A stretch of 64,000 bases of DNA from Vicinamibacterales bacterium (GTDB lineage: Bacteria; Acidobacteriota; Vicinamibacteria; Vicinamibacterales; UBA2999). Positions within the stretch are counted from its first letter, which is position 1. Each line of letters begins with the position of its first letter. The notes below the pieces were generated by a model, which ran no database searches, was not told the origin of the DNA, and saw only the letters and a list, made by a program, of their open reading frames with translations. Location of the stretch: positions 16,961 to 80,960 of the forward strand of contig DATJJE010000005.1 in assembly GCA_035492455.1 (NCBI GenBank), in the 5' to 3' direction. Shown here piece by piece: positions 4,098 to 45,922 of the stretch. Made by a program: the position numbers and the translations under genes.

Positions 4098-4098
4098 G

Positions 4099-10977: not shown

Positions 10978-10978
10978 G

Positions 10979-11563
10979 TTATTTCTCTTTGCGCAGGTGG
11001 CAACCCGTAAAGGCTGACTGGCCGCGTGAGCGGATGTCGTCGATGAACTTCGAGCACTGCTCCGGCGTCAAGCCTTCGTGCCAGTCGTCGTTCACCATCA
11101 CCACCGGCGCTCGATCGCAGGCGCCGAGGCATTCAACTTCCATCAGCGTGAACGTGCCGCTGGGATCGGTCTCCCCCGGCTTGATGCCAAGCTTGTTGCT
11201 CAATTCCTCGGTGACGCGCTCGGCGCCGAGCAGCGCACATGACAGCGTGCGGCAGACGTTGAGCACGTACTTGCCGACCTGCCGCGTGTAGAACATCGTG
11301 TAGTACGAAACGACGTCCTCGACTTCGGCCGGTGTGCAGCGGATCTGCTCGGCCACGAGCTTCATGCCCGCGGCGGTGATGTAGCCCTGCTGGTTCTGCA
11401 CGAGATAGAGCGCGTAGAGAATCGCGGACTTCCGCCGGTCGGGCGGATAACGCTTCACGACCTCGTCGAACTTCGCCTGGTTCTCGGCGGTGTACTTGAA
11501 CGGCTCGCCGGGTTCCGCCAGTTTGCGCTCCGACCGGTGAAACCTGGCCGGCGCGTACTCCAT
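10979..11563 (-). CDS. nuoE: NADH-quinone oxidoreductase subunit E (2Fe-2S)
   Basis: MEYAPARFHRSERKL...VCRTLSCALLGAE...VECLGACDRAPVVMVND. The ATG at 11563 avoids overlap with nuoD, whereas the track start at 11713 overlaps it. Confidence 0.9.
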   Translation of the reverse strand: MEYAPARFHRSERKLAEPGEPFKYTAENQAKFDEVVKRYPPDRRKSAILYALYLVQNQQGYITAAGMKLVAEQIRCTPAEVEDVVSYYTMFYTRQVGKYVLNVCRTLSCALLGAERVTEELSNKLGIKPGETDPSGTFTLMEVECLGACDRAPVVMVNDDWHEGLTPEQCSKFIDDIRSRGQSAFTGCHLRKEK

Positions 11564-11577
11564 CTGCGGATGAAAGC

Positions 11578-12759: not shown

Positions 12760-13311
12760 TTAGTGAGCTCTCTTCATCCGATCGCGTGCGATGTTTGCCC
12801 TGAATTCTTCTTCGCTGACCTCGAGCGGCTCGTAGGTCTGTGCTGCCTTGCGAATCTGCACCGGATAGTCCTTGCGTGCAGGATGCCCTTCCCAATCCTC
12901 GGGCATCAGCAGCCGCCGCAGATCGCCGTGGCCGGCGAAGACGATGCCGAACATGTCCCAGACTTCGCGCTCGGGCCAGCCGGCGGCGGGCCAGATGCTC
13001 TGCACCGTCGGCACGGCGCCATCGATTTCGTTCGATGCGACGCGCACTTTCAGGCGCAGCCGCTGCCGGTTCGGAACCGACAGCAGGTGGTACACAACCT
13101 CGAAGCGCGGTTCCCGCGGCAGGTAATCGGCCGCGGTGACTTCGAGGAGCACGTTGAAACGAAGCGACGGCGTGTCGCGCAGTGCCTGGCAGGTGGCGAC
13201 GAGCGCGTTCGCCGGGACGTAGAGCGTCGCGAAGTCGACGCTCTTGCCGGCCTCGTACGACGCACCCGGGACGACGCCCGTCAGCGTATCAATGATGGAA
13301 GAAGCGTCCAC
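12760..13311 (-). CDS. nuoC: NADH-quinone oxidoreductase subunit C
   Basis: 183 aa: WPAAGWPEREVWDMFGIVFAGHGDLRRLLMPEDWEGHPARKDYP. Confidence 0.93.
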   Translation of the reverse strand: MDASSIIDTLTGVVPGASYEAGKSVDFATLYVPANALVATCQALRDTPSLRFNVLLEVTAADYLPREPRFEVVYHLLSVPNRQRLRLKVRVASNEIDGAVPTVQSIWPAAGWPEREVWDMFGIVFAGHGDLRRLLMPEDWEGHPARKDYPVQIRKAAQTYEPLEVSEEEFRANIARDRMKRAH

Positions 13312-13319
13312 GTATGCGG

Positions 13320-13817
13320 TTATGCGCGTGATCGGGCGATCTTCTGCTGCAGTTGCACGATTCCGTAGATGAGCGATTCGGGACGCGGGGGGCAGCCGGG
13401 CACATACACATCAACCGGCACCACCTGATCCACGCCCTGCACAATCGCGTAGTTATCGAATACGCCGCCGACCGACGCACAAGCGCCCATCGAGATCACC
13501 CACTTCGGGTCGGGCATCTGGTCATAGACGCGGCGCATCGCCGGCGCCATCTTTCGCGACAGCCGTCCGGCGACAATCATCAAATCCGACTGCCGCGGCG
13601 ATCCGCGGAACACTTCTGCACCGAACCGCGCGACGTCGTAGCGGCTGGTCGCCATCGACATCATCTCGATCGCGCAGCACGCCAGGCCGAACTGGGCCGG
13701 CCAGATGGCCGAGCGACGCGCCCACTGAATAAGCTTCTCTACTGTCGTGGTGATGAGCGGGAGTTCCGGGTCGACAAGCCCGTGTTCGTGATCGTGCGCC
13801 TGGGCGGGTGCATTCAT
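13320..13817 (-). CDS. nuoB: NADH-quinone oxidoreductase subunit B (N2 cluster)
   Basis: 165 aa: [15 protein letters not shown]...[16 protein letters not shown]...[13 protein letters not shown]. Confidence 0.95.
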
Positions 13818-13833
13818 GGATTACGTGTCGACC

Positions 13834-14226
13834 TCAGGCGGCCTTACGAGGCGCGGGCGTGACGCGGCGCCGTGACCCCCAGTCGAGCACGCCCTTGCGC
13901 CACACGTAGACGAACCCGACGAGCAAAATCAAAAAGAACGTGACGATCTGCACCAACCCGGCCCAGCCGAGGTCGCGCAGCGCGACCGCCCATGGATAGA
14001 GAAACGCGACTTCGATGTCGAACAGCAGGAAAATCATCGCGACGAGATAGAACTTCACCGACTGCCGCTCGCGCGCATCGCCAACAGCTGGCATGCCGCA
14101 TTCGTAAGGCGCCAGCTTCTCTGGAGTCGGATTTCTCGGTCCGAGCAGTACGGACAGCCCGATCATCACGGCCGCGAACCCCACGCCGAGGACGACCATG
14201 ATGACTACGCCAAGCCAGCCGTCCAT
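13834..14226 (-). CDS. nuoA: NADH-quinone oxidoreductase subunit A
   Basis: 130 aa: YECGMPAVGDARERQSVKFYLVAMIFLLFDIEVAFLYPWA. First gene of the operon. Confidence 0.92.
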   Translation of the reverse strand: MDGWLGVVIMVVLGVGFAAVMIGLSVLLGPRNPTPEKLAPYECGMPAVGDARERQSVKFYLVAMIFLLFDIEVAFLYPWAVALRDLGWAGLVQIVTFFLILLVGFVYVWRKGVLDWGSRRRVTPAPRKAA

Positions 14227-17255: not shown

Positions 17256-20200
17256 GTGGCGCGTAGCGACGTGCTCCAACTCTTCCATCCGGCCGTACGG
17301 CAGTGGTTCGCCGGCGCGTTCGCCGCGCCGACGCGTCCACAGCAGCTTGGATGGCCGGCGATCGCCCGCGGCGAGTCGACACTCATCCTCGCACCGACCG
17401 GCAGCGGCAAGACGCTCGCAGCGTTCCTCTGGTGCCTCAACCGGCTCATGTTCGAGCCCGCGCCGCCGCCGAAGCAGCGATGCCGGGTGCTGTATGTCTC
17501 GCCGCTGAAGGCGCTCGCCGTCGACGTGGAGCGAAATCTGCGTGCGCCGCTCGCCGGCATTGCCAACATCGCGCGCGAAAGTGGCACCGCGATCAACGCT
17601 CCGGAGATCGCGATCCGCACCGGCGACACCTCCTCGATCGAGCGGGCGAGGTTCGGGCGGGAGGCCGCCGACATCCTGATCACGACGCCGGAATCGTTGT
17701 TCCTGCTGCTGACATCGAACGCACGCGAACGCCTGATGTCGGTGGACACGGTCATCATCGACGAGATTCACGCCTTGGTGCCCGGCAAGCGCGGCGCGCA
17801 TCTCATGCTGTCGTTGGAACGGTTGGAGGAGATCCGACGTGGAGGGGCGGATCTGCAGACCCGCCCAGACCCCCTTCAGCGCATCGGCCTCTCCGCCACC
17901 CAACGGCCGCTCGACGAAGTCGCGCGCTTCCTCGGCGGTGCCGAGCCGCGCATCCCAAAAAAGACGCGCGCCGCAACGAAGACGCGCTCCCGCACGCGTG
18001 ACGCGCAGCCGGTAGAGGAAATCGAGAGTGAGCTGCATGACGAGTTTGCGGCGGACGAGAAGGCTCCCACCTACCGCCAGGTCACTATCGTCAATGCCTC
18101 GGAGCGGAAACAGCTGAAGCTGCGCATCGAGGTGCCGGTCGAAGACATGGCGCGGCTGGCAAAGACGAACGAGATTCCCAGCGGGCCGGTGGGCGGCGCC
18201 AATCCGCGCGCATCGATCTGGAGCTCGATTCATCCACGGCTGCTCGAGCTGATTCACGCGCACCGGTCGACGCTCATCTTCGTCAACAGCCGCCGTCTCG
18301 CCGAGCGGCTGGCGGGCGCGTTGAACGAGCTGGCCGGCGAACCTCTCGTCCGCTCGCATCACGGCTCGCTCGCGCGTGCGGCGCGCAGCGAGGTCGAAGA
18401 TCTGCTCAAGGCCGGCCGCATCAAAGCGCTCGTCGCCACCTCCTCGCTCGAGCTCGGCATCGATATGGGCGCCATCGATCTCGTCATCCAGATCGAAGCG
18501 CCGCCGTCGGTGGCGAGCGGGCTGCAGCGGATCGGGCGTTCCGGCCATCAAGCCGGCGCCATCAGCGAAGGTATCGTCTTCCCGAAGTTCAGGGGCGATC
18601 TCGTCGCGTGCGCCGCTGTCTCGCGAGCGATGCATGAGGGGCTGGTCGAGTCCACGCGCTACCCGCGAAATCCGCTGGACGTGCTCGCCCAGCAGATCGT
18701 CGCGATGGCCGGTATGGACCCGTGGGACGTCTCCATGCTCTTCGCGCGCATCCGATGCGCGGCGCCCTACGCCGACCTCAGTCTTCGCATGTTCGAGGGC
18801 GTGCTCGACATGCTGTCCGGCCGCTATCCGTCGGACGAGTTCGCGGAACTGCGCCCGCGTGTCACGTGGGATCGCGTGCATGGCACGATCGCCGGCCGTG
18901 AAGGCGCCAAGCGGGTCGCGATTGCCAACGCCGGCACGATTCCTGACCGCGGCTTGTACGGCGTGTTTCTCGCCGGCGCCGACCGACCTGTGCGAGTCGG
19001 CGAACTCGACGAGGAGATGGTGTTCGAAAGCCAGGTCGGCGAGACGTTCACGCTCGGCGCATCGACGTGGCGCATCGAGGAGATCACGCACGATCGCGTG
19101 CTCGTCTCGCCGGCACCCGGCGAACCGGGCAAAATGCCGTTCTGGCACGGCGACCGCGAAGGCCGCCCGATCGAGCTGGGATACGCAATCGGCAAACTCG
19201 TTCGCGATCTGCGCGGTTCGTCGCGCCCCGCCGCGGTCGAGCGCCTCGTCAAACAGCACGATCTAGACAGCGTCGCCGCCGAGAACCTCCTCCGCTACCT
19301 GGACGATCAGGCGGCCTCGGGTGCCATCCCGGACGACCGCACTATCGTGATCGAGCGCTGCCTCGACGAACTCGGCGATTGGCGCGTCTGCCTCCTGTCG
19401 CCGTTCGGGAGCCGCATCCACGCGCCGTGGGCTATGGCGGCGACCGCCCACATCCGCAACCGCACCGGCATGGACGTCGAAGTGATGTGGGGCGACGAGG
19501 GCTTCGTCGCGCGGTTTCCGGAAGTCGAGAATCCACCGGACCCGATGCTGTTAATCCCGGACGTCGACGAGGTCGAGGCGCTGGTGCTCCGGCAGTTAGG
19601 ATCCACATCGCTCTTCGCGGCGCGCTTCAGAGAAACCGCCGCGCGTGCGCTGCTGCTGCCACGCCGCCGCCCGGGCATGCGCACGCCTCTCTGGCAACAA
19701 CGCAAGCGCGCGTCGGATCTGCTGGCCGTGGCCTCGCGATTCGGCTCGTTTCCGGCGCTGCTGGAAACCTACCGCGAGGTGCTGCGCGATCACTTCGACA
19801 TGCCCGCACTGGTGGAGACGCTGAAGAAGATCGGCACGCGCACGCTGCGCGTCGCCACGATCGATTCACGAGTGCCGTCGCCATTCGCCGCCTCGCTCCT
19901 TTTCAGCTACGTCGCGAACTACATCTACGACGGCGATGCGCCGCTGGCGGAGCGGCGCGCGCAGGCGTTGTCGGTCGATCAGGCGCAGCTGCGCGAGCTG
20001 CTCGGCGACGCGGAGCTGAGGGAACTGCTCGATGCCGAGGCGATAGTCGCCCTCGAGCGGCAGCTGCAGCACCTCGATGACAAATACAAAGTGCGAAGCA
20101 AAGACGGTCTGCACGACCTGTTGCTGCGGCTGGGCGACCTCGACCTCGACGAACTGTCCGACCGCACACTGATTGCGGACGCCGCCAGGACGATCCACGA

Positions 20201-22274
20201 ACTGGAAGACGAGCGTCGTGTGGTGTCGCTGCCGATGGCGGGCATGCGTCGTTATGTCGCCGTCGAAGACGTCGCACGCTATCGCGACGCACTCGGCGTT
20301 CCCCTTCCGCCCGGACTGCCGGAGTCGCTGCTCGAGCCGGTTCGCGATCCAGCCGGCGATCTGGCGCTGCGCTACGCGCGATCGCACGGACCGTTCACGG
20401 CAGGCGAGCTGGCCGCGCGTTATGGCCTCGGCATCGGCGTCGCAACGGCGCTGCTCCTGCAGCTCACAGCGGCAGGCAAACTAATCGAAGGCGAGTTCAG
20501 ACCGGGGGGCACCGAACGCGAGTGGATTGACCAGGACGTCCTCCGCAGCCTGCGTCGGCGATCGCTTGCGCGTCTTCGCCACGAGATCGAACCCGTCGAC
20601 GCGGAAGCGCTCGCACGGTTTCTCGCGTCATGGCACGGTGTTGGGTCCGGCCGCGTCGGACTCGAAGCGCTGCTCGATGCCGTCGAGCAGTTGCAAGGAG
20701 CGCCGGTCCCCGCGTCTGTTCTGGAACGCGAGATTCTGCCGGCGCGCGTGAACGATTACATGCCGGCGATGCTCGACACGTTGATGAGTGCGGGCGAAGT
20801 CGTATGGGTCGGCATCGAGCCGCTCGGTGAGCGGGACGGGCGCGTTGCGCTGTATCTGACAGATCAGATGCCGCGTCTGCGCGCGCCCTTTGGCCCACAA
20901 TCCGAAGTCGATGGACGTGCGGCGGAGGTGCTCGAGTATCTGCGCGAGCACGGCGCCTCCTTCTTCGCTGCCATTCATGAGGGGACGGGTGGCGGCTTCC
21001 CCGCCGAAACGGTCGACGCACTCTGGAGCCTCGTGTGGAATGGGCTGGTGACGAACGACACCATGCAGCCGCTTCGTGCATATGCGCGGACCGAAGACAC
21101 ACGCGCGTCCAAGCGCGTGCGCGGCGCGCCGTTCAGATCGCGGCGCATCGTCCCGCCGCGGGCAGAAGGACGGTGGTCGGCCGTCGCGCTGGCCCGCGGA
21201 AGGAAATCTTCGGCAACGGAATGGGCCACCGCGATGGCGCAGCAGCTGCTCGCGCGGCACGGCATCGTCACACGTGAGACTGTTGCTGCCGAATCGGTCA
21301 AGGGCGGGTTCTCCGCCATATATCAAGTGCTCAAAGCGATGGAGGACGCGGGCCGCATCAGGCGCGGCTACTTCGTCGCGGGACTCGGAGCGGCGCAGTT
21401 CGCCATGCCGGCTGCGCTCGATCTCCTGCGCTCGATGCGCGATGTCTCAGAGGAGCCGCGAACAGTTGTGATGGCCGCAACCGATCCTGCGAATCCCTAT
21501 GGCGCAATTACGAAATGGCCCGACACTGACGCTGCTGCACAGAGGCTTGTCGCGAGCGAGCACAGCGAGTCGAGGAGCAGAGGACCTACGCGGGCCGCCG
21601 GTGCGCTTGTCATCCTCGTCGATGGGCATGCGGCTGCGTACCTCCGTCGCGGCGAACGCGAGCTCCTCCTGTTCCTTCCAGAGGCTGAACCGCTGCGCTC
21701 GCGCATCGGCCGCCAGGTTGCGCGGATGCTTCTCCACCTCGCGGCGACGCGTCAGGGGCGGCGCGGCATGCTCATCGCGGAAATCAACGGCACACAGGCG
21801 ACGACGCATCCCGCGGCGCGTCTGTTTATCGAAGAGGGTTTCGCCGCGACGGGAATGGGTATTCAGGCCCGCACCGACAAGCTGCGACCTCGTGGATACG
21901 GTTCGGCCGATCTGAAAGGTGTCGCCGTCCAGGACACTGGCATCGGCATTGCGGCGGCCACGGGTGGAGGTGGATCCATGGCTGAGTCCCGCACGTCATC
22001 CAGCACGTTCGAGCACACGCGCCCGCGCGCCAACGAGGACAGCGAGGTGGAGCACGACCGCGTCCGCTCCTCGAACGATCAGGATCAGGAGTTGGAGCGC
22101 GAGGGAGTGGAGTCGAGCCGCAACCGCGGCTACGACGAGGCCGTGCGCGGTGGTCAGGAAGCCGTCAGGCGAGGCGACGTCGCACGCGAAGACCTCGGCG
22201 ACGTCGACGACCGCGATCTCGATCCCGACAGCGCCTTCTCAGACGTCGACCGTGATGACACCGTAGACGAATAG
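17256..22274 (+). CDS. lhr: Lhr-type large ATP-dependent DEAH helicase with acidic C-terminal tail
   Basis: 1672 aa with a GTG start. Motifs: LILAPTGSGKTLAAF (motif I), IIDEIHAL (DEAH), GLSATQRP, HHGSLAR, QRIGRSGH. The length fits Lhr plus a tail of about 135 aa rich in Asp/Glu/Arg. Confidence 0.92.
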   Translation: MARSDVLQLFHPAVRQWFAGAFAAPTRPQQLGWPAIARGESTLILAPTGSGKTLAAFLWCLNRLMFEPAPPPKQRCRVLYVSPLKALAVDVERNLRAPLAGIANIARESGTAINAPEIAIRTGDTSSIERARFGREAADILITTPESLFLLLTSNARERLMSVDTVIIDEIHALVPGKRGAHLMLSLERLEEIRRGGADLQTRPDPLQRIGLSATQRPLDEVARFLGGAEPRIPKKTRAATKTRSRTRDAQPVEEIESELHDEFAADEKAPTYRQVTIVNASERKQLKLRIEVPVEDMARLAKTNEIPSGPVGGANPRASIWSSIHPRLLELIHAHRSTLIFVNSRRLAERLAGALNELAGEPLVRSHHGSLARAARSEVEDLLKAGRIKALVATSSLELGIDMGAIDLVIQIEAPPSVASGLQRIGRSGHQAGAISEGIVFPKFRGDLVACAAVSRAMHEGLVESTRYPRNPLDVLAQQIVAMAGMDPWDVSMLFARIRCAAPYADLSLRMFEGVLDMLSGRYPSDEFAELRPRVTWDRVHGTIAGREGAKRVAIANAGTIPDRGLYGVFLAGADRPVRVGELDEEMVFESQVGETFTLGASTWRIEEITHDRVLVSPAPGEPGKMPFWHGDREGRPIELGYAIGKLVRDLRGSSRPAAVERLVKQHDLDSVAAENLLRYLDDQAASGAIPDDRTIVIERCLDELGDWRVCLLSPFGSRIHAPWAMAATAHIRNRTGMDVEVMWGDEGFVARFPEVENPPDPMLLIPDVDEVEALVLRQLGSTSLFAARFRETAARALLLPRRRPGMRTPLWQQRKRASDLLAVASRFGSFPALLETYREVLRDHFDMPALVETLKKIGTRTLRVATIDSRVPSPFAASLLFSYVANYIYDGDAPLAERRAQALSVDQAQLRELLGDAELRELLDAEAIVALERQLQHLDDKYKVRSKDGLHDLLLRLGDLDLDELSDRTLIADAARTIHELEDERRVVSLPMAGMRRYVAVEDVARYRDALGVPLPPGLPESLLEPVRDPAGDLALRYARSHGPFTAGELAARYGLGIGVATALLLQLTAAGKLIEGEFRPGGTEREWIDQDVLRSLRRRSLARLRHEIEPVDAEALARFLASWHGVGSGRVGLEALLDAVEQLQGAPVPASVLEREILPARVNDYMPAMLDTLMSAGEVVWVGIEPLGERDGRVALYLTDQMPRLRAPFGPQSEVDGRAAEVLEYLREHGASFFAAIHEGTGGGFPAETVDALWSLVWNGLVTNDTMQPLRAYARTEDTRASKRVRGAPFRSRRIVPPRAEGRWSAVALARGRKSSATEWATAMAQQLLARHGIVTRETVAAESVKGGFSAIYQVLKAMEDAGRIRRGYFVAGLGAAQFAMPAALDLLRSMRDVSEEPRTVVMAATDPANPYGAITKWPDTDAAAQRLVASEHSESRSRGPTRAAGALVILVDGHAAAYLRRGERELLLFLPEAEPLRSRIGRQVARMLLHLAATRQGRRGMLIAEINGTQATTHPAARLFIEEGFAATGMGIQARTDKLRPRGYGSADLKGVAVQDTGIGIAAATGGGGSMAESRTSSSTFEHTRPRANEDSEVEHDRVRSSNDQDQELEREGVESSRNRGYDEAVRGGQEAVRRGDVAREDLGDVDDRDLDPDSAFSDVDRDDTVDE

Positions 22275-23065
22275 TGCCCGAGGGCGACACTATCTTCCGT
22301 GCGGCACGCACGCTCAACGCAGCGCTGGCGGGCCGCACGGTCACCCGCTTTGAATCCGTTTTCGCACACGTGGCGCGCGTTAACGACGGGGCGCCACTCA
22401 GCGGGCGGAGCATCGAACGCGTGGAAGCGCGTGGCAAGCACCTGCTCATCTGGTTCTCCGGCGATCTCGTCCTGCGCACGCACATGCGGATGCACGGGTC
22501 GTGGCACCTGTATCGCCCGGGTGAGCGGTGGCAGCGGTCGCGCGCCGACATGCGTATCGTGATCGGAACGCCCGAGTACGAAGCGGTCGCTTTCAGCGTG
22601 CCGGTCGCGGCGCTGACGACGCGTCGCGAGCTCGAACGTGCGGCGGCGGTGCGAGAACTCGGACCAGACATCCTGTCACCCGGCTTTGATGCTGATGCAG
22701 TCGTGGAACGGATGCAGCAAATGCCAGATGTCGAAGTCGCGGACGCGCTCCTGGATCAAACCGTGGTCGCGGGAATCGGCAATATCTTCAAGTCGGAGTC
22801 GCTCTTCGCCTCGCGCGTCGATCCGTTTGCGCGTGTCGGTAAGCTCGCACGCGGCGACCTCGTCCGCGTCGTTGAAGCCGCGCATCGGCTGATGCAGGCG
22901 AGCGCCACCGGCCGGCCTGCAGCCGGATTCGCGGTGTACGGTCGCAGCGGCCGTCCGTGCCGCCGCTGCGGCACACTGATCTCGCGACGCAAGCAAGGGG
23001 AGCACGCGCGCATTACGTATTGGTGCGACCGATGCCAGCGTCGAATGCCCGCACCCGCCGGATGA
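22274..23065 (+). CDS. nei: Fpg/Nei-family DNA glycosylase (endonuclease VIII-like)
   Basis: N-terminal MPEGDT (catalytic Pro2/Glu3), an H2TH region (AGIGNIFKSESLF) and a C-terminal zinc finger (CRRCGTLI...YWCDRCQ). The GTG start overlaps the lhr TAG as TAGTG. Confidence 0.9.
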   Translation: MPEGDTIFRAARTLNAALAGRTVTRFESVFAHVARVNDGAPLSGRSIERVEARGKHLLIWFSGDLVLRTHMRMHGSWHLYRPGERWQRSRADMRIVIGTPEYEAVAFSVPVAALTTRRELERAAAVRELGPDILSPGFDADAVVERMQQMPDVEVADALLDQTVVAGIGNIFKSESLFASRVDPFARVGKLARGDLVRVVEAAHRLMQASATGRPAAGFAVYGRSGRPCRRCGTLISRRKQGEHARITYWCDRCQRRMPAPAG

Positions 23066-23555
23066 AATCGGCACGCGCAGCCGGATCGTCGAGCGCTTCT
23101 TCGTCGATCATCGGAAGTCCTGGGATGGCCGTGGCGAGCTGCTCCGCAAACAGGCCGCGCCCGTTTGGCGTCGGACTCGCATCGTCGTAATGCACGAGCA
23201 CGCCGGTGGGACCGCAGCTCGGTGACCGCGCCTTCAGCACAAATCCGCTGACGCGTTCGGCGGCCAGAGCGGCGACACGATCGCGCGCCCAGCGATCCAT
23301 CCGTCCGGTCCAGTCTTCTCTCGAATCCACGCCCTGCAGGCGTACGCGTTCGCGCTCCGACGCCACGGCGTGGATGGTCGCCACCAGCTGAATCGGCTCG
23401 CGCGGCACACCCATCCCGACTTCAACTTCAGGACAAACCGGTAGCCATTCGACGTCCTCACCGAGCGCAATCACCGCGTTGCTGCGCTTGTTCGTCCCGT
23501 CGTAGCGCACATCATCGCCGAGCAGGCAGCGTGAGATACCTACGCGTGGCTTCAC
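23013..23555 (-). CDS. DUF523 (YbbK/TudS-like) protein
   Basis: MKPRVGISRCLLGDDVRYDGTNKRS...PVCPEVEVGMGVPREP...SPSCG. The GTG start overlaps the gvpK TGA as GTGA. Confidence 0.8.
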   Translation of the reverse strand: MKPRVGISRCLLGDDVRYDGTNKRSNAVIALGEDVEWLPVCPEVEVGMGVPREPIQLVATIHAVASERERVRLQGVDSREDWTGRMDRWARDRVAALAAERVSGFVLKARSPSCGPTGVLVHYDDASPTPNGRGLFAEQLATAIPGLPMIDEEALDDPAARADFIRRVRAFDAGIGRTNT

Positions 23556-23971
23556 ATCAATTTTCCGACGGGACCGAGATCGAGATTGAGGTCTTCCGGG
23601 AGAATGCCGAATTTCGCCGCGATGTCGACGACAGTCTCTTCGAGCTTCATCAGCGCGCGGCCGATTTCCTCGATCTGCTGGCTGGTGAGCGTGCCAGCCT
23701 CCATGCGGCGAATCGCCTGTCGCTCCAGCAGCTGGCGGATGAATTCAACGAGAGTCAACACCAATTGAGCCACCGATCTCTGCACGTCGTCAGCATTCGC
23801 ATTCCATCTCAGCGGAGACGACGCCGAGCGGCTGGCGCGTTCGAGCTCGCGGCGGAGATCGTCGAGTTTGCCGACCTCGCTGATGGTGAGGGCGCCGCGG
23901 CGTGCGACGACCTTCTTACCGCGTGTCGTCCGTGGCGCGGACCGCCTGCTTCTACGAGCTTTCTTTGCCAT
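23552..23971 (-). CDS. gvpK: Gas vesicle protein K
   Basis: LVLTLVEFIRQLLERQAIRRMEAGTLTSQQIEEIGRALMKLEETV...DLNLDLGPVGKLM is the typical GvpK core. It has a basic N-terminal tail. Confidence 0.9.
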   Translation of the reverse strand: MAKKARRSRRSAPRTTRGKKVVARRGALTISEVGKLDDLRRELERASRSASSPLRWNANADDVQRSVAQLVLTLVEFIRQLLERQAIRRMEAGTLTSQQIEEIGRALMKLEETVVDIAAKFGILPEDLNLDLGPVGKLM

Positions 23972-24664
23972 TCACCACGTATCCGCGAATGCGTACGGTG
24001 GCCAGGGTCCCGTCACGACCAGACGCAGGGCCTGTTCGTCTGCGGCACGCTCCACGATGTCGCGGTATCTCTCGGCCGCGCCGCGCGGGACGAGATGGTT
24101 GATCGTTACGACACCGCCGCGCTTCTCAACCCGCTCGTCCTTGACGTAGGTGCGGATGGCCGGACGGATACGGTCGAATGCGGGCACCGCGCGCGCCGCT
24201 GCAGCATCTGCCACCTTTTGCCGCAAATACTGCGTACCTTGAGTCGCCCCGTACCCGAGTCGGAGTCGCGTACGACTCGTCACCGTACTCTGACTCGGGA
24301 ACGCGGCATCACCCGACTCTGACTCGAGAAGGCGGACGGTCATCTGGGCGCGGCCGCGAACGGTGGTAAGCCGGTGACGGAGGGCGGCGCGGCGCGATCG
24401 GATGACGACCGTGAGCTCGTCGGTGTCGGCGACAGTCGTCGCGTACCTCGCAGGCAGAGTCGCGGACGTCTTTGCCGCAATCGCTTCCACAGCCGCGGCA
24501 TACCGCCGCAGATTCCTGACGCTCGGCGCAGGCGCGCGCCGCAGTTCGCCCACGATGGCGCCGATGCGATCAATCGTGATCACCTTGAGACGCTCCCCTC
24601 CGACGCCGGGAAGATTCAGATGTGCCGGCGGCGGGCTGACGAGCGCATAGACGCAGAGAATCAC
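23972..24664 (-). CDS. gvpL: Gas vesicle protein GvpL/GvpF family
   Basis: 230 aa. N-terminus ILCVYALV..., C-terminus VVTGPWPPYAFAD (GvpF/L signature). It abuts gvpK and overlaps gvpJ by 4 nt. Confidence 0.85.
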   Translation of the reverse strand: MILCVYALVSPPPAHLNLPGVGGERLKVITIDRIGAIVGELRRAPAPSVRNLRRYAAAVEAIAAKTSATLPARYATTVADTDELTVVIRSRRAALRHRLTTVRGRAQMTVRLLESESGDAAFPSQSTVTSRTRLRLGYGATQGTQYLRQKVADAAAARAVPAFDRIRPAIRTYVKDERVEKRGGVVTINHLVPRGAAERYRDIVERAADEQALRLVVTGPWPPYAFADTW

Positions 24665-24984
24665 GCCCGCGTCCGGCGCGGCATTCGCGCCGCCAGCGCT
24701 CGACGTTTGCGCAGCTCATGACGCGCATGATGCCGCTCGATGAAATCCGGATTCTCGCCCGGCAGCACGCGATCCGCAGCGGAGAGCAGCAGCGACAGCC
24801 GGGCATAAACGAGCTCGATCTGCGCCAGGCCAAGAGTTAAATCTCCAGTGAGCACCACGCCTTTGTTCAACAGGTTGTCGACGATGTCGAGCAGCGAGGC
24901 GTCCTCGGTACCGAGGATCTCCTCTGCTTCGGTCGGACGGTGTGGCCGCGGTTGTTTTGGCGGAACTCGCCTCGGCGGAATCAT
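24661..24984 (-). CDS. gvpJ: Gas vesicle protein GvpJ (GvpA/J/M family)
   Basis: SLLDIVDNLLNKGVVLTGDLTLGLAQIELVYARLSLLLSAAD. The ATG at 24984 forms an ATGA overlap with the upstream gvpF/L stop. The alternative start at 25008 is less likely. Confidence 0.85.
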   Translation of the reverse strand: MIPPRRVPPKQPRPHRPTEAEEILGTEDASLLDIVDNLLNKGVVLTGDLTLGLAQIELVYARLSLLLSAADRVLPGENPDFIERHHARHELRKRRALAARMPRRTRA

Positions 24985-25766
24985 TGGATGAAGTTGTACG
25001 CCGGCCATGGACCGGTGAGCGATACGTCGACGCCGGAACCGCGCAGCTCACGCGTGCGCTGACGAATGGCGGATTTAAACGCTCCGCTCTTCGCAATGGC
25101 CACGAGAAACGCCGCGTCAAGCAGCAGGCGCGAGCCTGGTGCTGCGCGCTCGAGGCTGGTGCGACGCCGCGATGCGGCCGCCTGTTTCCCCATCACTTTG
25201 TACAACCGATCGGCAATCTTGCGCGCTTCCGCCAGCCGAGTGCGATTCACATCCAGGATGTCGCGCTTGCGAGCGAGGTAGGCAGCGCCGGATCGCGGGC
25301 TTGTAACGCCCGCGCTGCCGGCTGCTCGCTTTGTGGCTGTGCGTCGCGCACCGTTCGGGTCCGCGAACGTCAGCCTCAATCCGAACTCGACCTTCTTCTC
25401 GATCCGCTTGACGATGCGGTTGATCCGCGTGCGATCTGCTCGCACGTGCTCGACGACGCGCGCATCAGACGTGAAGAGTGTGAACAACTGCATGGGCAGA
25501 AGTGCCGGCAACGAGAGAAATGCTTCGATGACGCGCTCGTGGGCGATGGCGCGTGGACCCACCCAATCGAAATTCTGCAGCCCGCCTGCCAGCGCCTCCT
25601 CGCCGTACTCAGATGCGCGAACGCTCTGCACGACGGCCCAGAGTCCCTGATCCACGTCGACGGCACGCAAATCGCTGCCGCCCGGCATGCCGTCGGTGAT
25701 TCCGCGCAGGCTCGGAGGTCTCGTGCTCCTGACCAGACAGAAGACGTAGCTGAGCGCTCCGCTCAC
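24981..25766 (-). CDS. Gas vesicle protein GvpF/GvpL family (second paralogue)
   Basis: 261 aa: SYVFCLVRS..., AHERVIEAF, C-terminal LTGPWPAYNFIQ. Confidence 0.85.
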   Translation of the reverse strand: MSGALSYVFCLVRSTRPPSLRGITDGMPGGSDLRAVDVDQGLWAVVQSVRASEYGEEALAGGLQNFDWVGPRAIAHERVIEAFLSLPALLPMQLFTLFTSDARVVEHVRADRTRINRIVKRIEKKVEFGLRLTFADPNGARRTATKRAAGSAGVTSPRSGAAYLARKRDILDVNRTRLAEARKIADRLYKVMGKQAAASRRRTSLERAAPGSRLLLDAAFLVAIAKSGAFKSAIRQRTRELRGSGVDVSLTGPWPAYNFIQ

Positions 25767-25767
25767 G

Positions 25768-26328
25768 TCAGCGGATCTTACCCGCCTTCGCTCGCGTGGC
25801 CTTGCGACGCGAGCTTCGGCGCGGCTTCGGCGTAATCTTTCTCGTTCGTGTGGTTGTGGTGGGAAGCGGTAAGGCGGTTTCCTCGAGCGTCTCGGCGCTG
25901 GTGGGCTCGATGTCGATCACCTGCTCGGTCTGGCCGTGCGCGGTGCCGACGATACCGGGATGCGATTCGGGGCGTTCGACGATCGTGGTATGCGGCGCCT
26001 GTGCGGGCTCGTAGAAATCGCCCGATACGCTCGCCTCGATCTGGAAACGGCTGTCTTCGTCGGCTTCGAGCGGCTGGCCAGCGCCGAACTCGAGCGCGCC
26101 GGAACCGCCTTCGCGGCGCTGCTTGATTTCGCGGATGCGCGCCAGCAGATCCCGTTCGATCTCGCGGAACTCGTCGTCGCTGATCTCGCCCATTTCGCGC
26201 TGCATCTCCGCGGCGAGCAGCTGCTCGCGCAGCGCCGTATCGTCGTTCATCTCGGCTTCCGCCGCGGTGACGACAGTCTTCAACGCCCATGAGATGCCTT
26301 TGATCATGAGCGAGTCCAAAAGAAACAT
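25768..26328 (-). CDS. gvpG: Gas vesicle protein G
   Basis: MFLLDSLMIKGISWALKTVVTAAEAEMNDDTALREQLLAAEMQREMGEISDDEFREIERDLLARIREIK. The track N-terminus (MEFGSWSLEL) is translation of the heptamer repeat, so the start is set at 26328. Confidence 0.85.
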   Translation of the reverse strand: MFLLDSLMIKGISWALKTVVTAAEAEMNDDTALREQLLAAEMQREMGEISDDEFREIERDLLARIREIKQRREGGSGALEFGAGQPLEADEDSRFQIEASVSGDFYEPAQAPHTTIVERPESHPGIVGTAHGQTEQVIDIEPTSAETLEETALPLPTTTTRTRKITPKPRRSSRRKATRAKAGKIR

Positions 26329-26391
26329 AAGTTCCAAGCTCCAGGATCCAAATTCCAAACGTTTTTGAGCTTGGGACTTGGATCTTGGATC
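26329..26391. repeat. Heptamer-periodic inverted repeat filling the whole gvpF-gvpG intergenic gap
   Basis: TTCCAAG CTCCAGG ATCCAAA TTCCAAA (26332-26359), CGTTTTTGAG, then CTTGGGA CTTGGAT CTTGGAT (26370-26390). It uses the same unit as the 37784-37900 element. Confidence 0.85.
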
Positions 26392-27423
26392 CTAATGTTG
26401 CCCTGCTCGTTCCAGCTTGAGGCGAATGTTGACGAAGTTATACGGAGGCCACGGCCCTGTGTACTTGAACGTCAACTTGTCGAAGGTCGACGCGATTTCC
26501 TTGATCCTCCGGTCGAACGCCGGTTCCTGGTCGCGCTGCACGAGGAACGCAGCGTTCATGATCATCTTGTCGCCGATGGCGCGGTTGACGCGCGATGCAA
26601 CCGACACGTCGCGCAGTCGCTGCAGGAACTCGGCGACGTAACGCTCCGACCGTTGCTGCAGTGCGCCGTCGATCAAGCGGCCGTACTGCATTCGGGCGAA
26701 ATACGTGGACCCCTTCTGCGAGGAAATCTCGGTCTTGAGGCGATGAATGTCCTCGTCCTCCTGCTCGATCTGCCGGACGATCTCGTCGCGATCCCACAAC
26801 ACTTTCAGACCGAACTCGAGCTTGTCCTGCATCTTCGACAGGACGTCCGCAAACGCATCGTAGGCCGATCGCAGCAGCTCCACGATGTCCTCGCGCGTCT
26901 TGAAGATAGTGCCGAAGGACATCGGGATAACCGTGTGGTCGCGCATCACCGTCTCGTTGACGCGCTCGTGCGCGAGCACGTTTTCGCGCGTGGAATCGAG
27001 CGGTGCCAGCGGGATGTCGGAGACAACCGCCGCCATGTCCTTGAAGGTGATGGTGTAAACCTCGGGCCATTGCTCGTCCATGCCGATGGCCCCGAATTTC
27101 AGCGGCTGGCTCGCGCGGATGATGCAGTAGACGTAACGCCCACGGCCCGCCGACCGATCTACGTCGGGAAGGCTCGGCTTCGGCGCTCGTTCGACGACGC
27201 GCTCGACGCGGGTTTCGGTGCCGCGCACCTCGGTCTCGTGCGTGACGCGCGTGACGGCCGCGTCCTCGTCTCTCCTGCGGGCGACAGGCTTGGCCGCGCG
27301 ACCCGACGCCGCAGCGCCGTTGCCTCGCTTCAGCGTGCGCGTCGCTGTGGCCGCGCGCGGACGCGCGGACGCGGGGGGCGTGGCGGACTTGCGTGCGCTG
27401 GATTTGTTCTGAGCCTTCGCCAT
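26392..27423 (-). CDS. gvpF: Gas vesicle protein GvpF/GvpL family with ~100-aa basic N-terminal extension
   Basis: RYVYCIIRAS...AHERVNETVM...LEFGLKVLWD...KYTGPWPPYNFV. The N-terminus is rich in K/R/A/P. Confidence 0.87.
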   Translation of the reverse strand: MAKAQNKSSARKSATPPASARPRAATATRTLKRGNGAAASGRAAKPVARRRDEDAAVTRVTHETEVRGTETRVERVVERAPKPSLPDVDRSAGRGRYVYCIIRASQPLKFGAIGMDEQWPEVYTITFKDMAAVVSDIPLAPLDSTRENVLAHERVNETVMRDHTVIPMSFGTIFKTREDIVELLRSAYDAFADVLSKMQDKLEFGLKVLWDRDEIVRQIEQEDEDIHRLKTEISSQKGSTYFARMQYGRLIDGALQQRSERYVAEFLQRLRDVSVASRVNRAIGDKMIMNAAFLVQRDQEPAFDRRIKEIASTFDKLTFKYTGPWPPYNFVNIRLKLERAGQH

Positions 27424-27437
27424 ATGCGTACCTTATG

Positions 27438-27830
27438 TCAGGCTTTCTTGACGGTGTCGAGCATGCGCCTCACCTCGACCACAAGATCATCGGGCAGGCA
27501 TGGTTTGGTGACAAACGAGTCGCAGCCGGCCTTGCGCGCCCCTTCGGACGCGCCGGCCAGCGCATGACCGGTGAGCGCCACGACCGGAATATGTTTCGTC
27601 CGATCGTCGGCCTTCAACACTCGGGTCGCCTCCCACCCATCCATCCCGGGCAGCGACAGGTCCATGAGGATCAAATCCGGCCGCAGCGAGAACGCCTGCG
27701 CCACGGCCTCGTTGCCATTGCGGGCCTCCGCCACGCGGAAGCCGGAAAACTGGAGGTACTCCGCGTACATTTCCCGGGCATCCTGGTAGTCGTCGACGAC
27801 AAGAATCAACGGAGAGTCGGGTTGCGTCAT
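27438..27830 (-). CDS. Single-domain response regulator (CheY-like receiver)
   Basis: 130 aa: [15 protein letters not shown]...[16 protein letters not shown]...PVVALTGHA...KP. No output domain. Confidence 0.9.
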
Positions 27831-30004
27831 TGTTCTGCTTCCGCGGGGATAGTGAGCGTAAACGTTGACCCCTTCCCCATTTGGCTTTCAAGCGTAATGC
27901 GCCCACCCAGGGCGGTAGCCAGGCGCCGGCAAATCGCCAAACCAAGACCTGTGCCGCCATATGGGCGAGAGGGCGAGTCGTCCACCTGGCGGAAGTCTTC
28001 GAAGATCTTTTCGTGGTTCTCGGGAGAGATACCGATGCCGGTATCGACAACCGAGACGTTCGCCGTGCGATCGACGCTGTCGTAACCGACGGTAATTCGG
28101 ATGCCGCCTTCGTGCGTGAACTTCAACGCGTTGCTGAGCAGATTGACGATGATCTGCTTGACCTTCTGCCGGTCGCTGTAGACCATCGGCAGATCCGGAC
28201 ACAGCATCGGCGATACCGTCAGCTTTGAGCGCGCGATCACCGGGTCGAGCTCCGTCATCACTTCCGGCACCAGCTCGTTCAGGTTGAACTCGCTGAGCTG
28301 CATCGGCATCTTGCCCGCCTCGATGCGGGTGATGTCGAGAATCTCGTTGATGATCGTCATCAAATGACGACCGTTGCTGTCGATGCGCTGCAGCTGCCGT
28401 TTCACCGCCGGCAGCAGATCGCCGGCGACGCCCTGTAGCAGCATGTGCGTGTAGCCCAGAATCGCGTTCAGCGGCGTCCTGAACTCGTGCGACATGTTGG
28501 CGAGGAACTGCGACTTCAGGCGCGAGGCCTGTTCGAGCTCGATCGCCTGGCGTCGCAGCAGTTCGTTCTGCGTCGCCAGCTCGGCAGTCGCTGCCTGCAC
28601 GCGCGCCTGCAGCTCGTCTGACGCAGTCTTCAACTGCTCGTACAGCTTCGCGCGCTCGAGGGCCTCGCGGCGATCGTGCAGGATCGTCACGACGGCGGTC
28701 AGCTCGCCGGTTTCGGTGAGCACCTTGCCCGCGATCGCTTCAACCGGAATCGGCTCGTTCGTCGCCGGATTCATCAGGCTGATCTCACCGCGGCGGATTT
28801 CGCCGGGGCCGGTTTCGCCGAGCAGCAGGCCGGAAATGAAAGACGAGAAGTGCGCATCGTTGGCCTGCACCGTGCGCGCCGCCATTTCCGTCGCTCCGGG
28901 CGGCAGCGTGAAGAGATCTTCGGAAGGTGCGTTCATCAGCACGGTGGCACCCGTGGAATCGGTGACGATGATCGGGTCGGCAACCGAGTCGATGATCAGG
29001 TTCAGACGATCGCGTTCCGCGCGCACCGCGGCTTCGGCCACGCGCAGCTTCTGATAGTTCTCTTCGATCTGCTCCGTCGCCCGGCGCAGGTCCGTGATGT
29101 TGCGCAGGACCGACACAACGCCGGTGCCTTCCCGTGGGTCTTCAACGGTTGTCGAGAGCACTTCGAACAGCAGGTCGGACCCGTCGCTCGGATCCACGAG
29201 CAGCAGCTCGCGCGCTTCCTGCGACCCTTCCACCGCGGAGCGCGACAACGCCGCGGAAAACAGCATGTTGTTCAATTCGACGGCGCGGCGCCGGCCTTCG
29301 CTTTCCTCTTCGCTCGCGGCAAACAGCTTTTCCGCGCGTGCGTTGGCCACGATCAGCCGGCCTTCGATGTCGGTCAGCATGATCGGGTCGGTCACGGCAT
29401 TGATGATGGTGAAAAAGAGCGTCCGCTCGCGGCGCAGCTTGCGCGCTTCTTCGGCCAGGCTGCCGCGCCCGCGCACCTGATCGATCTTCTGGCCGAGCAC
29501 GGCGACGACCCAGTTGATGTCAGGCGTCAGCGCCGGCGTGCGCAGCAGCAGCAGACCGGGCGCGATCTCATCGCGCTCCGGCATGGTGCCGCCGCGAATG
29601 CCGAGTGGCACGGCGGTGAACGGGCCGCGTCCGAGCGGCAGTGAGGGCGGATGCGAGGCGTGGCCGTTGGGCCGGTACGATTTGATGTGAACGGGAGCGT
29701 GTGCCTCGAGTGCCGCGATCATTGGATCGTAGTTATCCGAGAGCGGCCACGAGAAGAGCTCGATGTCATCGCCGATTGTGCCGTGGGCGGCGATGCCCAC
29801 CAGCATGTTCGATTCGACGTCGACGGCCAGACACGCCGACTGCTTCACGCCGGAATGCCGCGCCAGCCATTCCAGGCTGACCTGCGCGCACCGCACGATG
29901 TCTTCGTGATGCGCGAGATAATGCTCGAGCAGCTCGAGGCGTGCTGCATAGCTGACGGCAGTGCCGGCTGTCCGAGTAAAGGTCCGCGCCTGAAGCGAGC
30001 TCAT
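27827..30004 (-). CDS. Cytoplasmic multi-sensor histidine kinase (GAF-like N-terminus, two PAS-like regions, HisKA, HATPase_c)
   Basis: 725 aa with the H-box [20 protein letters not shown]-box LLSNALKFT and G-boxes DTGIGI / [10 protein letters not shown] saw no hydrophobic TM segment. It overlaps the RR gene by 4 nt. Confidence 0.9.
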
Positions 30005-30056
30005 TTCCTACCCTGTGGTTCGATCCATCGCGGCGTCACGGTAGCGACGCGCGCGC

Positions 30057-30395
30057 CTACTGCCGGGTACGTCGTCGAGTTCCCGCGGGTGCGCGCGTGC
30101 CGGCGGTAGGAGCACCCTCGAGCTGCGCGCGCAGCGACACGTTCTCCGCCGCCAGTTCATCGTACGGACGAGGCGCCTCGATGGTTGGCCGTGCAGCCGA
30201 TGCCGCAGCGCCGACCGCCTCTGAGTACTTCAGGTATGTGTCGATCGAGGCCACGACAACGCGCGCTTCGACGGTGATCAAATCGATCCCGACGAGTGAC
30301 ACGCGCACCCAGGCATCGATGACGATCCCCTTGTCGAGGACGCGATCGAGGACGTCAATAAGACTTGTTCCGCCTGCAGCTCGTTCGACGGCCAT
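30057..30395 (-). CDS. gvpA: Gas vesicle structural protein GvpA (canonical core plus C-terminal extension)
   Basis: [52 protein letters not shown] matches the canonical GvpA core almost residue for residue. A tail of about 45 aa follows. Confidence 0.93.
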
Positions 30396-30407
30396 CGTGA
30401 AGACTCC

Positions 30408-30761
30408 TTAGTCGGACGTGTCTTTGCCGGTCGCGCGTCCGCGCCGGCCGGAAGCGCGCGTCAACGACGCGACCTTCCGCTCGAGCAGCCGCAGCTGCTC
30501 ACGCAGTTCAAGGTTTTCCCGGAGCACCTGCTCGCGTCCCGGCGAGAGGTGTCGGTCGTACTTCCACCAGTCCAGACCGATCTCCTCTGCCTTATCGATC
30601 GAGCAGATCATCAGGCGGATGCGGATCGTGAGGAGCTCGACTTCGGCAAGCGACACCTTGATGTCGCCCGCGACGACGAGACCTTTGTCAAGCACGCGAT
30701 CGAGAATGTCGACCAGCCCGGCATTGCCGCGGGTCGGACTCCCTGTCAGGTCGGTCGGCAT
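30408..30761 (-). CDS. GvpA/GvpJ-family protein (actinomycete-GvpA-like) with coiled-coil/basic tail
   Basis: [55 protein letters not shown]. First gene of the operon. Confidence 0.88.
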   Translation of the reverse strand: MPTDLTGSPTRGNAGLVDILDRVLDKGLVVAGDIKVSLAEVELLTIRIRLMICSIDKAEEIGLDWWKYDRHLSPGREQVLRENLELREQLRLLERKVASLTRASGRRGRATGKDTSD

Positions 30762-30815: not shown

Positions 30816-30918
30816 ACACGAAGCTCACGCGAACCGACGAAGTATAGATCAAGCCCTTCTTCTAAACCGACTCAACCGTAGTGGAATTTGGAGGCTATGC
30901 GCTACCATGTGAAGCCCG

Positions 30919-45540: not shown

Positions 45541-45559
45541 ACAGGGCCTCCCGCTGCGC

Positions 45560-45910: not shown

Positions 45911-45922
45911 GATAGGGCTACT

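Follow-up and report, generated by a model that had tools for sequence, protein, structure and literature searches.

A reduced, probably functional gas-vesicle operon with an embedded histidine kinase and response regulator in an uncultured soil bacterium of the Vicinamibacterales

Gas vesicles are built around GvpA, which polymerises into a ribbed shell, together with GvpJ and GvpM/S, which act early and bind tightly, and with GvpF, GvpL, GvpG and GvpK, which form a nucleation complex. They serve as genetically encoded ultrasound and magnetic resonance imaging reporters, and cluster size and the need for GvpN limit their engineering. GvpC merely stiffens and shapes the shell (PMC9501494, PMC11223475). 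The gene sets described as necessary comprise A, F, G, J, K, L, M and O in the haloarchaeon Haloferax (PMC9501494 Table 2) and B, N, F, G, L, S, K and J in the minimal set of Bacillus megaterium (PMC11223475). In Serratia sp. ATCC 39006, according to PMC4982088, A1, A2, A3, F1, F2, F3, G and K are required for any gas vesicle to form, and gvrA, gvrB and gvrC, which are embedded among the gvp genes, are needed for gvpA1 expression. Among the Acidobacteria, gvp genes linked to a gene for the ATPase ArsA were noted in 2010 for 'Acidobacteria bacterium Ellin345', clusters of this kind being found in several phyla (Castillo & Saier, PMC2963123). The cluster analysed here occupies positions 23013-30761 of a 64,000-nucleotide stretch of contig DATJJE010000005.1, hereafter the window, and differs from all of these systems in its combination of genes.

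We read this cluster as the functional core gas-vesicle operon of a soil-dwelling, uncultured member of the Vicinamibacterales (Acidobacteriota), reduced, rewired and regulated by a kinase, and give this reading a probability of roughly 0.7. The operon is real and under selection and is probably functional, with vesicle formation predicted from its genes. The listing of open reading frames (ORFs) shows 11 co-oriented, closely packed ORFs on the minus strand, all lying where an earlier, sequence-only reading had placed them, and the G+C content is 61-67% across the whole window (2-kb bins). Eight of the 11 match gas-vesicle Pfam families with E values of 1e-13 to 1e-76, well above curated thresholds: three belong to Gas_vesicle (the GvpA/J/M family), three to GvpL_GvpF, one to GvpG and one to GvpK. 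The gvp assignments of the sequence-only reading are thus upheld by Pfam and NCBIfam profile matches for all eight genes; the families it named stand, whereas two gene names had to be changed, since the first gene, which it called 'GvpA/J-like', is a true GvpJ orthologue and its 'gvpJ' is a GvpS/GvpM-like gene. After this correction the order is gvpJ, gvpA, PAS histidine kinase, REC-only response regulator, gvpF, gvpG, gvpL1, gvpS/M, gvpL2, gvpK and a DUF523/TudS-like gene, so that two gvp genes precede the kinase and regulator genes and six follow them. Intergenic distances are 12, 52, -4, 14, 33-63, 1, -4, -4, 0 and -4 nucleotides; the 0-52-nucleotide gaps or 4-nucleotide overlaps described earlier hold for nearly all junctions, but the gvpF-gvpG gap may be larger, at 33-63 nucleotides depending on the choice of gvpG start. 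All cluster ORFs are intact, with no frameshifts or stop codons and with the 4-nucleotide overlaps kept. The features of the locus are the following.

30841-30849, minus strand: ATCTATACT box, -10-like, candidate operon promoter, about 88 nucleotides upstream of the gvpJ start codon.
30408-30761, minus strand: gvpJ, 117 amino acids; Pfam Gas_vesicle PF00741, 62 bits; top NCBIfam match GvpJ.
30057-30395, minus strand: gvpA, major shell protein, 112 amino acids; PF00741, 61 bits; NCBIfam GvpA, 114 bits against a cut-off of 100.
27827-30004, minus strand: soluble sensor histidine kinase, 725 amino acids; Pfam two PAS, HisKA and HATPase_c.
27438-27830, minus strand: REC-only, DivK/CheY-like response regulator, 130 amino acids; Pfam Response_reg alone.
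26392-27423, minus strand: gvpF, 343 amino acids; Pfam GvpL_GvpF PF06386, 256 bits, residues 95-332.
25768-26358, minus strand: gvpG; Pfam GvpG PF05120, 63 bits, residues 12-77 of the long form.
24981-25766, minus strand: gvpL1, GvpL-like, 261 amino acids; Pfam GvpL_GvpF, 134 bits.
24661-25008, minus strand: gvpS/gvpM-like gene for a small GvpA-family protein; PF00741, 50 bits; top NCBIfam match GvpM.
23972-24664, minus strand: gvpL2, second GvpL-like paralogue, 230 amino acids; Pfam GvpL_GvpF, 115 bits.
23552-23971, minus strand: gvpK, 139 amino acids; Pfam GvpK PF05121, 112 bits.
23013-23555, minus strand: DUF523 / 2-thiouracil-desulfurase-like gene, 180 amino acids; Pfam PF04463, 117 bits.

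Genes were named by BLASTP comparison with the annotated clusters of Streptomyces fungicidicus, Kitasatospora and the gammaproteobacterium Spartinivicinus. The cluster contains a canonical GvpA shell protein, which passes the NCBIfam cut-off and gives gap-free alignments with two shell proteins of known structure, over residues 1-70 with that of Anabaena (8GBS; 47 of 70 identical, E value of 1e-25) and over residues 1-64 with that of B. megaterium (7R1C; 37 of 64 identical). The GvpA core is identical to that of Anabaena at 38 of 51 positions and almost invariant across the cluster family. Comparison with GvpA of the Spartinivicinus/Anabaena type covers the full 68-70 residues (87 bits), whereas comparison with actinomycete GvpA covers only a core of 51-60 residues (70 bits). 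The operon's best Shine-Dalgarno sequence, AAGGAG, precedes gvpA, and genes for GvpF/L, GvpG and GvpK, as well as two further GvpA-family genes (J and M/S), adjoin it, as judged by Pfam gathering thresholds and orthology. GvpJ, which belongs to the GvpA family as a minor shell or nucleation protein and has a conserved, coiled-coil C-terminal tail, shares 54% identity with annotated Streptomyces GvpJ and 45% with that of Spartinivicinus, along with the IDWW and EN..LREQL motifs. GvpA itself carries a C-terminal extension of about 40 amino acids (residues 71-112), with an AEN..LRAQL motif followed by an RRR end, that resembles the GvpJ tail (residues 70-117; EN.ELREQ.R.LE). Both tails are conserved in 15 diverse relatives, whereas the canonical GvpA proteins used for comparison (Anabaena, Spartinivicinus) are 71-78 amino acids long and have no such tail.

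The three GvpF/L paralogues comprise one GvpF-like (26392-27423) and two GvpL-like proteins (24981-25766 and 23972-24664). The top annotated matches of the former are GvpF proteins, and it also matches the solved GvpF structures 6L5D (E value of 3e-18) and 4QSG (E value of 1e-17); its residues 1-94 form a basic, low-complexity extension of about 94 amino acids that has no Pfam match and is probably disordered. The best annotated matches of the GvpL-like pair are actinomycete GvpL proteins for gvpL1 (27% identity) and Kitasatospora GvpL for gvpL2 (30%), and that of the gvpS/M product is Kitasatospora GvpS (44%). The gvpS/M gene probably encodes 107 amino acids from an ATG at 24984, a start on which gene callers agree and which gives a 4-nucleotide overlap with the gvpL1 stop. 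Likewise, gvpG probably starts at the ATG at 26328, giving 186 amino acids, the longest ORF starting from a TTG at 26358; gene callers place its length at 186-192 amino acids in five contigs. The GvpG C-terminal tail (about 110 amino acids) is of low complexity and charged, with a lysine-/arginine-rich end and no Pfam match, and GvpG is only about 99 amino acids long in one ArsA-type relative (L079). The nearest labelled relatives of GvpK are actinomycete proteins, from Nonomuraea (57%) and Streptomyces (51%).

Two further elements were considered as parts of the system and set aside. The DUF523 gene overlaps gvpK by 4 nucleotides and is probably co-transcribed with it; however, it follows gvpK in only 6 of about two dozen other relatives of the window's clade (defined below) and in none of the distant clusters, and we regard it as a passenger. 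A stem-loop in the 52-nucleotide gap after gvpA was considered as a device for setting transcript ratios. Its folding energy is -27.7 kcal/mol, but the z-score is 0.16, and the 40 nucleotides after the gvpA stop in 21 clade members give p = 0.29 against a GC-matched background. At one locus, from a groundwater metagenome-assembled genome (MAG; L009), the tandem repeat GGCTTCCGAGTTCC follows the gvpA stop directly in about four copies and fills an enlarged gap between gvpA and the kinase gene.

Scanned against Pfam, the larger ORFs from about 4 to 63 kb showed no gvp family outside 23.5-30.8 kb, and a Walker A screen of the ORFs outside these scans gave no candidate in the window. Searches by tblastn with Pfam-verified proteins, namely Spartinivicinus GvpN (AAA_5) and two actinomycete GvpO proteins (PF05800), found no gvpN or gvpO match in the window or in 85 related loci. 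GvpC is likewise missing: no Pfam scan of the window returned a Gas_vesicle_C match, and each cluster ORF is assigned to another family. Contigs carrying the outermost window genes cover about 9 kb past each window end; they hold housekeeping functions and no gvp genes, and the sole AAA+ protein in these flanks is FtsH. Taken together, Pfam, Walker A, tblastn and flank searches show that gvpN, gvpC and gvpO are absent from the roughly 82 kb centred on the cluster, which bears out the observation of the sequence-only reading that none was to be seen and answers its own objection that gvpN or gvpC might sit just beyond the window. Searches by tblastn with four ArsA proteins of sister loci found no ArsA-related match in the window. 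An ArsA pseudogene or remnant was also rejected, the only match with an E value below 0.01 being that of the GvpG-like N terminus of one query ORF (L033), which falls inside gvpG. Neither GvpN nor an ArsA-type ATPase is encoded within 10 kb of gvpF at any locus of the window's clade (L001-L029). No protein with the GAFTGA motif of NtrC-type activators is encoded in the 64-kb window, and the single match in the window to the sigma-54 element TGGCAY-N5-TTGC falls within the 3' end of lhr, away from the cluster.

The kinase lacks transmembrane segments, and its N-terminal domain (residues 1-195) gives no Pfam match even at E values up to 5; the H box (H506) and the N, G1 and G2 boxes are intact. 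The start of the regulator gene overlaps the kinase stop by 4 nucleotides, and the regulator retains all residues of the phospho-acceptor site (D13-D14, D57, T87 and K109). Its best full-length match among solved structures is DivK (E value of 6e-22), which is likewise a single-domain regulator and acts through contacts with other proteins. The kinase occupies the same position in essentially all related clusters (54-94% identity), and a PAS histidine kinase followed by a REC-only regulator lies between gvpA and gvpF in the window and at essentially every related locus of sufficient length. Indeed, the order J-A-HK-RR-F-G...K, where HK and RR are the kinase and regulator, holds throughout 85 annotated related loci, and its J-A-HK-RR-F-G part across the 80 species-level genomes described below, even at about 55% kinase identity. 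Because this order is conserved in relatives and the catalytic residues are intact, the kinase and regulator form an integral component of the cluster rather than a chance insertion. Several of the loci L010-L020 have an extra, divergently oriented histidine-kinase-like gene between yajQ and gvpJ, about 34% identical to the cluster kinase; the window lacks this gene, which is seen upstream of gvpJ in close relatives.

The cluster is maintained by selection. Identical GvpF proteins are encoded in contigs of four metagenomes and in one MAG at NCBI, with the same synteny and with 95-100% identity for the other cluster proteins. Compared with up to 14 species-level relatives, every cluster gene shows a ratio of nonsynonymous to synonymous substitution rates (dN/dS) of 0.06-0.34, that is, purifying selection, these values being rough as dS is 0.8-1.5 and near saturation; those of the neighbouring genes lhr, yajQ and fpg fall within the same range. 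The regulator is the most constrained gene of the cluster (dN/dS of 0.06, median amino-acid identity of 87%), with gvpA (0.07), gvpJ (0.12), gvpF (0.15), gvpK (0.16) and the kinase (0.18) above it, then gvpL1 (0.31; 52% identity to orthologues), and gvpL2 evolves fastest (0.34; median identity of 42% to orthologues). Despite their roughness, these ratios exclude a decaying remnant.

Variants of the cluster were told apart on a GvpF tree, midpoint-rooted only, onto which features were mapped. The tree shows three groups: clusters that carry ArsA, a 'second-type' clade and the clade of the window (L001-L029). The nearest relatives of the window cluster are other acidobacterial clusters with an ArsA-type ATPase. 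The ArsA clusters span two branches, one a large Vicinamibacterales group and the other with bins labelled Myxococcales, Rokuibacteriota and Planctomycetota; the ArsA gene, present at 35 related loci, encodes a two-domain protein of 620-770 amino acids (PF02374, 291-351 bits) and follows gvpG, before gvpL1. In the second-type clade the cluster has been rearranged and in part duplicated, an NtrC-type activator of about 485 amino acids with the GAFTGA motif is encoded, and ArsA is absent. The layout of this clade runs gvpA-gvpF-(G)-gvpL-gvpS, the activator, then a second gvpJ-gvpA-HK-RR block and gvpK, and it is found at L043-L045, L051, L053-L055, L059, L061, L062, L066-L068, L070, L072 and L073. 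The window's clade has neither ArsA nor the activator.

The upstream regions divide in the same way. A TATACT box precedes gvpJ in 20 of 21 scored loci of the window's clade (L001-L028), at a distance of 58-96 nucleotides, mostly about 88, and in none of 30 scored ArsA-type clusters. Conversely, a perfect sigma-54 element (TGGCAY-N5-TTGC) lies 74-108 nucleotides upstream of gvpJ in 23 of the 30 ArsA-type clusters, and in 0 of the 21 loci of the window's clade. The exact 9-mer ATCTATACT is found at 15 of the 20 loci that have the box, and occurs once in the 64-kb window, where 0.09 occurrences are expected. The box is the presumed promoter of the operon. Examples of the sigma-54 -24/-12 element are seen at L031, L036, L046, L060 and L065. 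Since most ArsA clusters have no enhancer-binding protein within 10 kb, their activator must be encoded at another genomic site. It is more likely that the window's lineage lost ArsA and sigma-54 control than that the other lineage gained them, because gvp clusters with a linked ArsA gene are found in several phyla (PMC2963123), although midpoint rooting leaves this direction uncertain. A palindrome upstream of gvpJ, GGGCAT-C-ATGCCC, was rejected as a conserved operator, being present only in the window and L007 among 26 upstream regions and missing from the wider clade, and a generic scan for sigma-70 promoters and terminators across 22.8-31.1 kb performed no better than on shuffled sequence.

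The GvpF search returned thousands of metagenomic relatives, those that bear a name being labelled 'Acidobacteria bacterium' or 'Vicinamibacterales bacterium', and at least 578 matching stretches in species-representative genomes. Among the best 80 of these at least 578 stretches, taken as the closest genomes at species level, 71 are labelled Acidobacteriota, mostly Vicinamibacterales, and all 80 are MAGs; the top relatives are Vicinamibacterales with 89-94% GvpF identity. The labels of its nearest relatives thus support an acidobacterial host, as the sequence-only reading had supposed. The closest of the at least 578 matches come mostly from Acidobacteriota of soil and groundwater. Isolate names of relatives include groundwater MAGs (label 'NC_groundwater'), as well as the labels 'SMAG', which we take to denote a catalogue of soil MAGs, and 'MFD', presumably Danish soil and sediment MAGs. 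Vicinamibacterales are among the most abundant bacterial lineages in soil. Three clusters in bins labelled Gemmatimonadaceae or Bifidobacteriaceae (L022, L029 and L072) are 64-82% identical to the Vicinamibacterales cluster, and these probably reflect mis-binning or mislabelled MAG contigs rather than gene transfer. A cluster labelled Myxococcaceae (L079) has a very high G+C content at third codon positions and looks more like one from a genuinely different host. The literature search found no paper that joins gas vesicles with Vicinamibacter, and none on soil metagenomes that describes a cluster of this type. The earlier suggestion that functional gas vesicles in an acidobacterium would be essentially unexplored needs qualifying, since at the level of annotation gvp genes were noted in Ellin345 in 2010 (PMC2963123).

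From these data a working model can be proposed. Transcription of the operon would start from the conserved TATACT-box promoter about 88 nucleotides upstream of gvpJ, and gvpA, with the best ribosome-binding site, would have the highest translation rate. GvpA would form the ribs of the shell, with GvpJ and GvpS/M as minor, early-acting components, and the three GvpF/L proteins would nucleate and assemble it with GvpG and GvpK. PAS domains typically sense redox, oxygen or energy state; the kinase may sense such a cytoplasmic signal and phosphorylate the regulator, the pair thereby gating vesicle formation. As it has no DNA-binding domain, the regulator would act through protein-protein contact, on assembly proteins or on a partner regulator. 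The window's clade would represent a reduced and rewired derivative whose sister clades carry the two-domain ArsA ATPase and the sigma-54 promoter. With neither an elongation ATPase nor GvpC, the vesicles would be expected to be small, narrow or spindle-shaped, unless another genomic locus provides an ATPase; this expectation draws on gvpN mutants, as Halobacterium, Serratia and B. megaterium form small bicones or spindle-shaped vesicles when GvpN is lost or impaired (PMC9501494, PMC11223475). A more specific version, in which the eight-protein core makes gas vesicles free of ATPase and GvpC, the PAS kinase and DivK-like regulator switch assembly on and off post-translationally, and the conserved GvpJ-like helix of the GvpA tail assumes a stabilising or recruiting role, is offered tentatively and seems to us unlikely to hold in full.

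Several points weigh against a functional core operon. No vesicles have been observed, none of the 80 closest genomes being from a cultured organism. GvpN is needed for mature gas vesicles in Serratia, Halobacterium and B. megaterium (PMC9501494, PMC4982088, PMC11223475), the B. megaterium cluster deprived of GvpN gave no gas vesicles visible by electron microscopy in E. coli (PMC11223475), and a review counts gvpC and gvpN as genes common to every cluster and GvpO, missing from the window cluster, as essential in Haloferax (PMC9501494). Streptomyces coelicolor, whose cluster also lacks gvpN, is reported to have no gas vesicles (PMC4982088). The promoter, the signal of the kinase and the target of the regulator are themselves inferred, and an ATPase may be encoded elsewhere in the genome, the search having covered about 82 kb. 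This last point leads to an alternative that we consider improbable yet worth weighing, namely that the cluster is functional but not self-sufficient, with an ATPase of the GvpN or ArsA type, perhaps along with a stiffener resembling GvpC, acting in trans so that the vesicles are conventional. Every tested system needs an ATPase for full-size gas vesicles (PMC9501494, PMC4982088, PMC11223475); sister clades keep the ArsA gene within the cluster, and gvp genes can be divided between loci, as they are in Microcystis and several haloarchaea (table in PMC9501494). Nevertheless, no such gene lies in the roughly 82 kb around the cluster or near gvpF in the rest of its clade, and the whole clade has lost ArsA while every other gene has been kept under selection. 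Function with no ATPase at all is plausible but unproven, since a gvpN-less actinomycete cluster, that of Streptomyces sp. CB03234-S, is reported to yield gas vesicles (cited in PMC7376271), and S. coelicolor reportedly makes none.

A less probable alternative still is that the proteins are made and yield no buoyant vesicles, giving instead tiny bicones or some other GvpA-based structure whose role in soil is not buoyancy, or are expressed only under rare conditions. Rare-condition expression has been proposed for S. coelicolor, in which a gvpN-less cluster is present and no gas vesicles were seen (PMC4982088), flotation has no obvious use in unsaturated soil, and the conserved C-terminal tail on GvpA is unusual. 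However, a GvpA core so nearly invariant speaks for conservation of an unchanged shell lattice, other systems that have lost gvpN still form gas-filled bicones (PMC9501494, PMC11223475), and relatives also come from groundwater, and from what we take by their MFD label to be Danish soil and sediment, where there are pores filled with water. Decay of the cluster after loss of the ArsA ATPase is strongly disfavoured, to the point of being very improbable: ArsA is absent here and present in two related clades, and gvpL2 and gvpL1 are poorly conserved, but the reading frames are uninterrupted, the overlaps, which fit translational coupling, are kept, dN/dS is below 0.35 for all genes including gvpL1 and gvpL2, the same gene set recurs in more than 20 species-level relatives, and the clade-specific promoter motif is conserved.

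The surroundings of the cluster contain other features. An Lhr-type helicase gene (1672 amino acids) ends exactly at the start of an Fpg/Nei-family DNA glycosylase gene (17256-23065, plus strand); this lhr-fpg pair lies next to the gvp cluster in many relatives, and an lhr-nei pairing is also known in mycobacteria. An NADH dehydrogenase operon (2652-14226, minus strand) contains nuoA, B, C, D, E and F followed directly by H, J, K, L, M and N, with no nuoG or nuoI between nuoF (9667-10977) and nuoH (8627-9667). The gene at 45368-46483 (plus strand), which adjoins a cytochrome P460 gene, encodes an OmpR-type winged-helix DNA-binding domain alone, with no receiver, and further receiver-domain proteins are encoded at 47315-47854 and 58175-58897; no link of these OmpR-type and receiver-domain proteins (45368-58897) to the gvp cluster was found. 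The ORF at the right end of the window (62914-63921) is a truncated part of a major facilitator superfamily gene of 499 amino acids.

What is new here is the eight-gene core free of ATPase, the conserved module of kinase and REC-only regulator, the correlated split of sister clades between ArsA with a sigma-54 promoter and the TATACT box, and the breadth of this family in uncultured Vicinamibacterales. The cluster is a natural test of how few genes the building of a gas vesicle needs, and sister clusters that differ mainly by the ArsA ATPase and the sigma-54 promoter provide a natural comparison for what the ATPase contributes. A naturally selected cluster of eight genes that combines a canonical GvpA with freedom from an ATPase would supply a minimal chassis ready for use, and the conserved kinase and regulator offer a new handle on gas-vesicle control outside the few model organisms. 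If clusters of this family are expressed, flotation or the formation of gas spaces would be a common, unstudied trait in soil; if assembly without an ATPase is true, the cluster would be a natural minimal gas-vesicle system and would point to a widespread response to flooding or oxygen in soil pore water, by way of buoyancy or gas spaces.

The eight gvp genes of the window match the set required in Serratia family for family, and the two share the embedding of regulatory genes among gvp genes. However, the Serratia genes form two operons and include gvpC, gvpN, gvpV and others, whereas the window cluster has neither gvpC nor gvpN, and, unlike the gvr module, it has no NtrC-type activator in the window and no sigma-54 promoter at the cluster. 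GvrA of Serratia is an NtrC-type sigma-54 activator, and such control would parallel the sigma-54 promoter of the ArsA clade. The Haloferax set is matched except for GvpO and that of B. megaterium except for GvpN; each numbers eight genes, as in the window, where the third GvpF/L paralogue fills the eighth place.

The actinomycete cluster, whose order gvpO-A-F-G-J-L-S-K was reportedly set out by van Keulen and colleagues in 2005, was compared through the examples of Streptomyces fungicidicus p1 and Kitasatospora sp. NBC_00039. The sequence-only reading had pointed out a likeness to it in gene order and in the lack of gvpN; the two share a soil host, eight small genes, the absence of gvpN and gvpC and a similar A-F-G...L-S...K order, and actinomycete GvpK (46-52%) and GvpJ (44-54%) are the closest labelled homologues of the window proteins. 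The likeness goes no further, since actinomycete clusters start with gvpO (PF05800), have a divergent GvpA (LELILDRG...VFVRVSL), two GvpF/L genes, gvpJ in mid-cluster and no embedded kinase-regulator pair, whereas the window cluster starts with gvpJ, lacks gvpO, and has a canonical GvpA, three GvpF/L genes and the embedded pair. Judged by its genes, it is not of the actinomycete gvpOAFGJLSK type, with which it shares only a resemblance in gene order.

The ArsA-associated type (PMC2963123) shares with the window cluster the phylum, a soil host, the absence of a listed gvpN and the presence of J, K and M-type genes. Its published description gives two GvpF/L copies and contains no kinase-regulator pair like that of the window cluster (PMC2963123), and the window's clade differs from it in having no ArsA gene and a TATACT box in place of the sigma-54 promoter. 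With ArsA missing, the window cluster stands beside the ArsA-associated type rather than within it, and that type is its nearest evolutionary neighbour.

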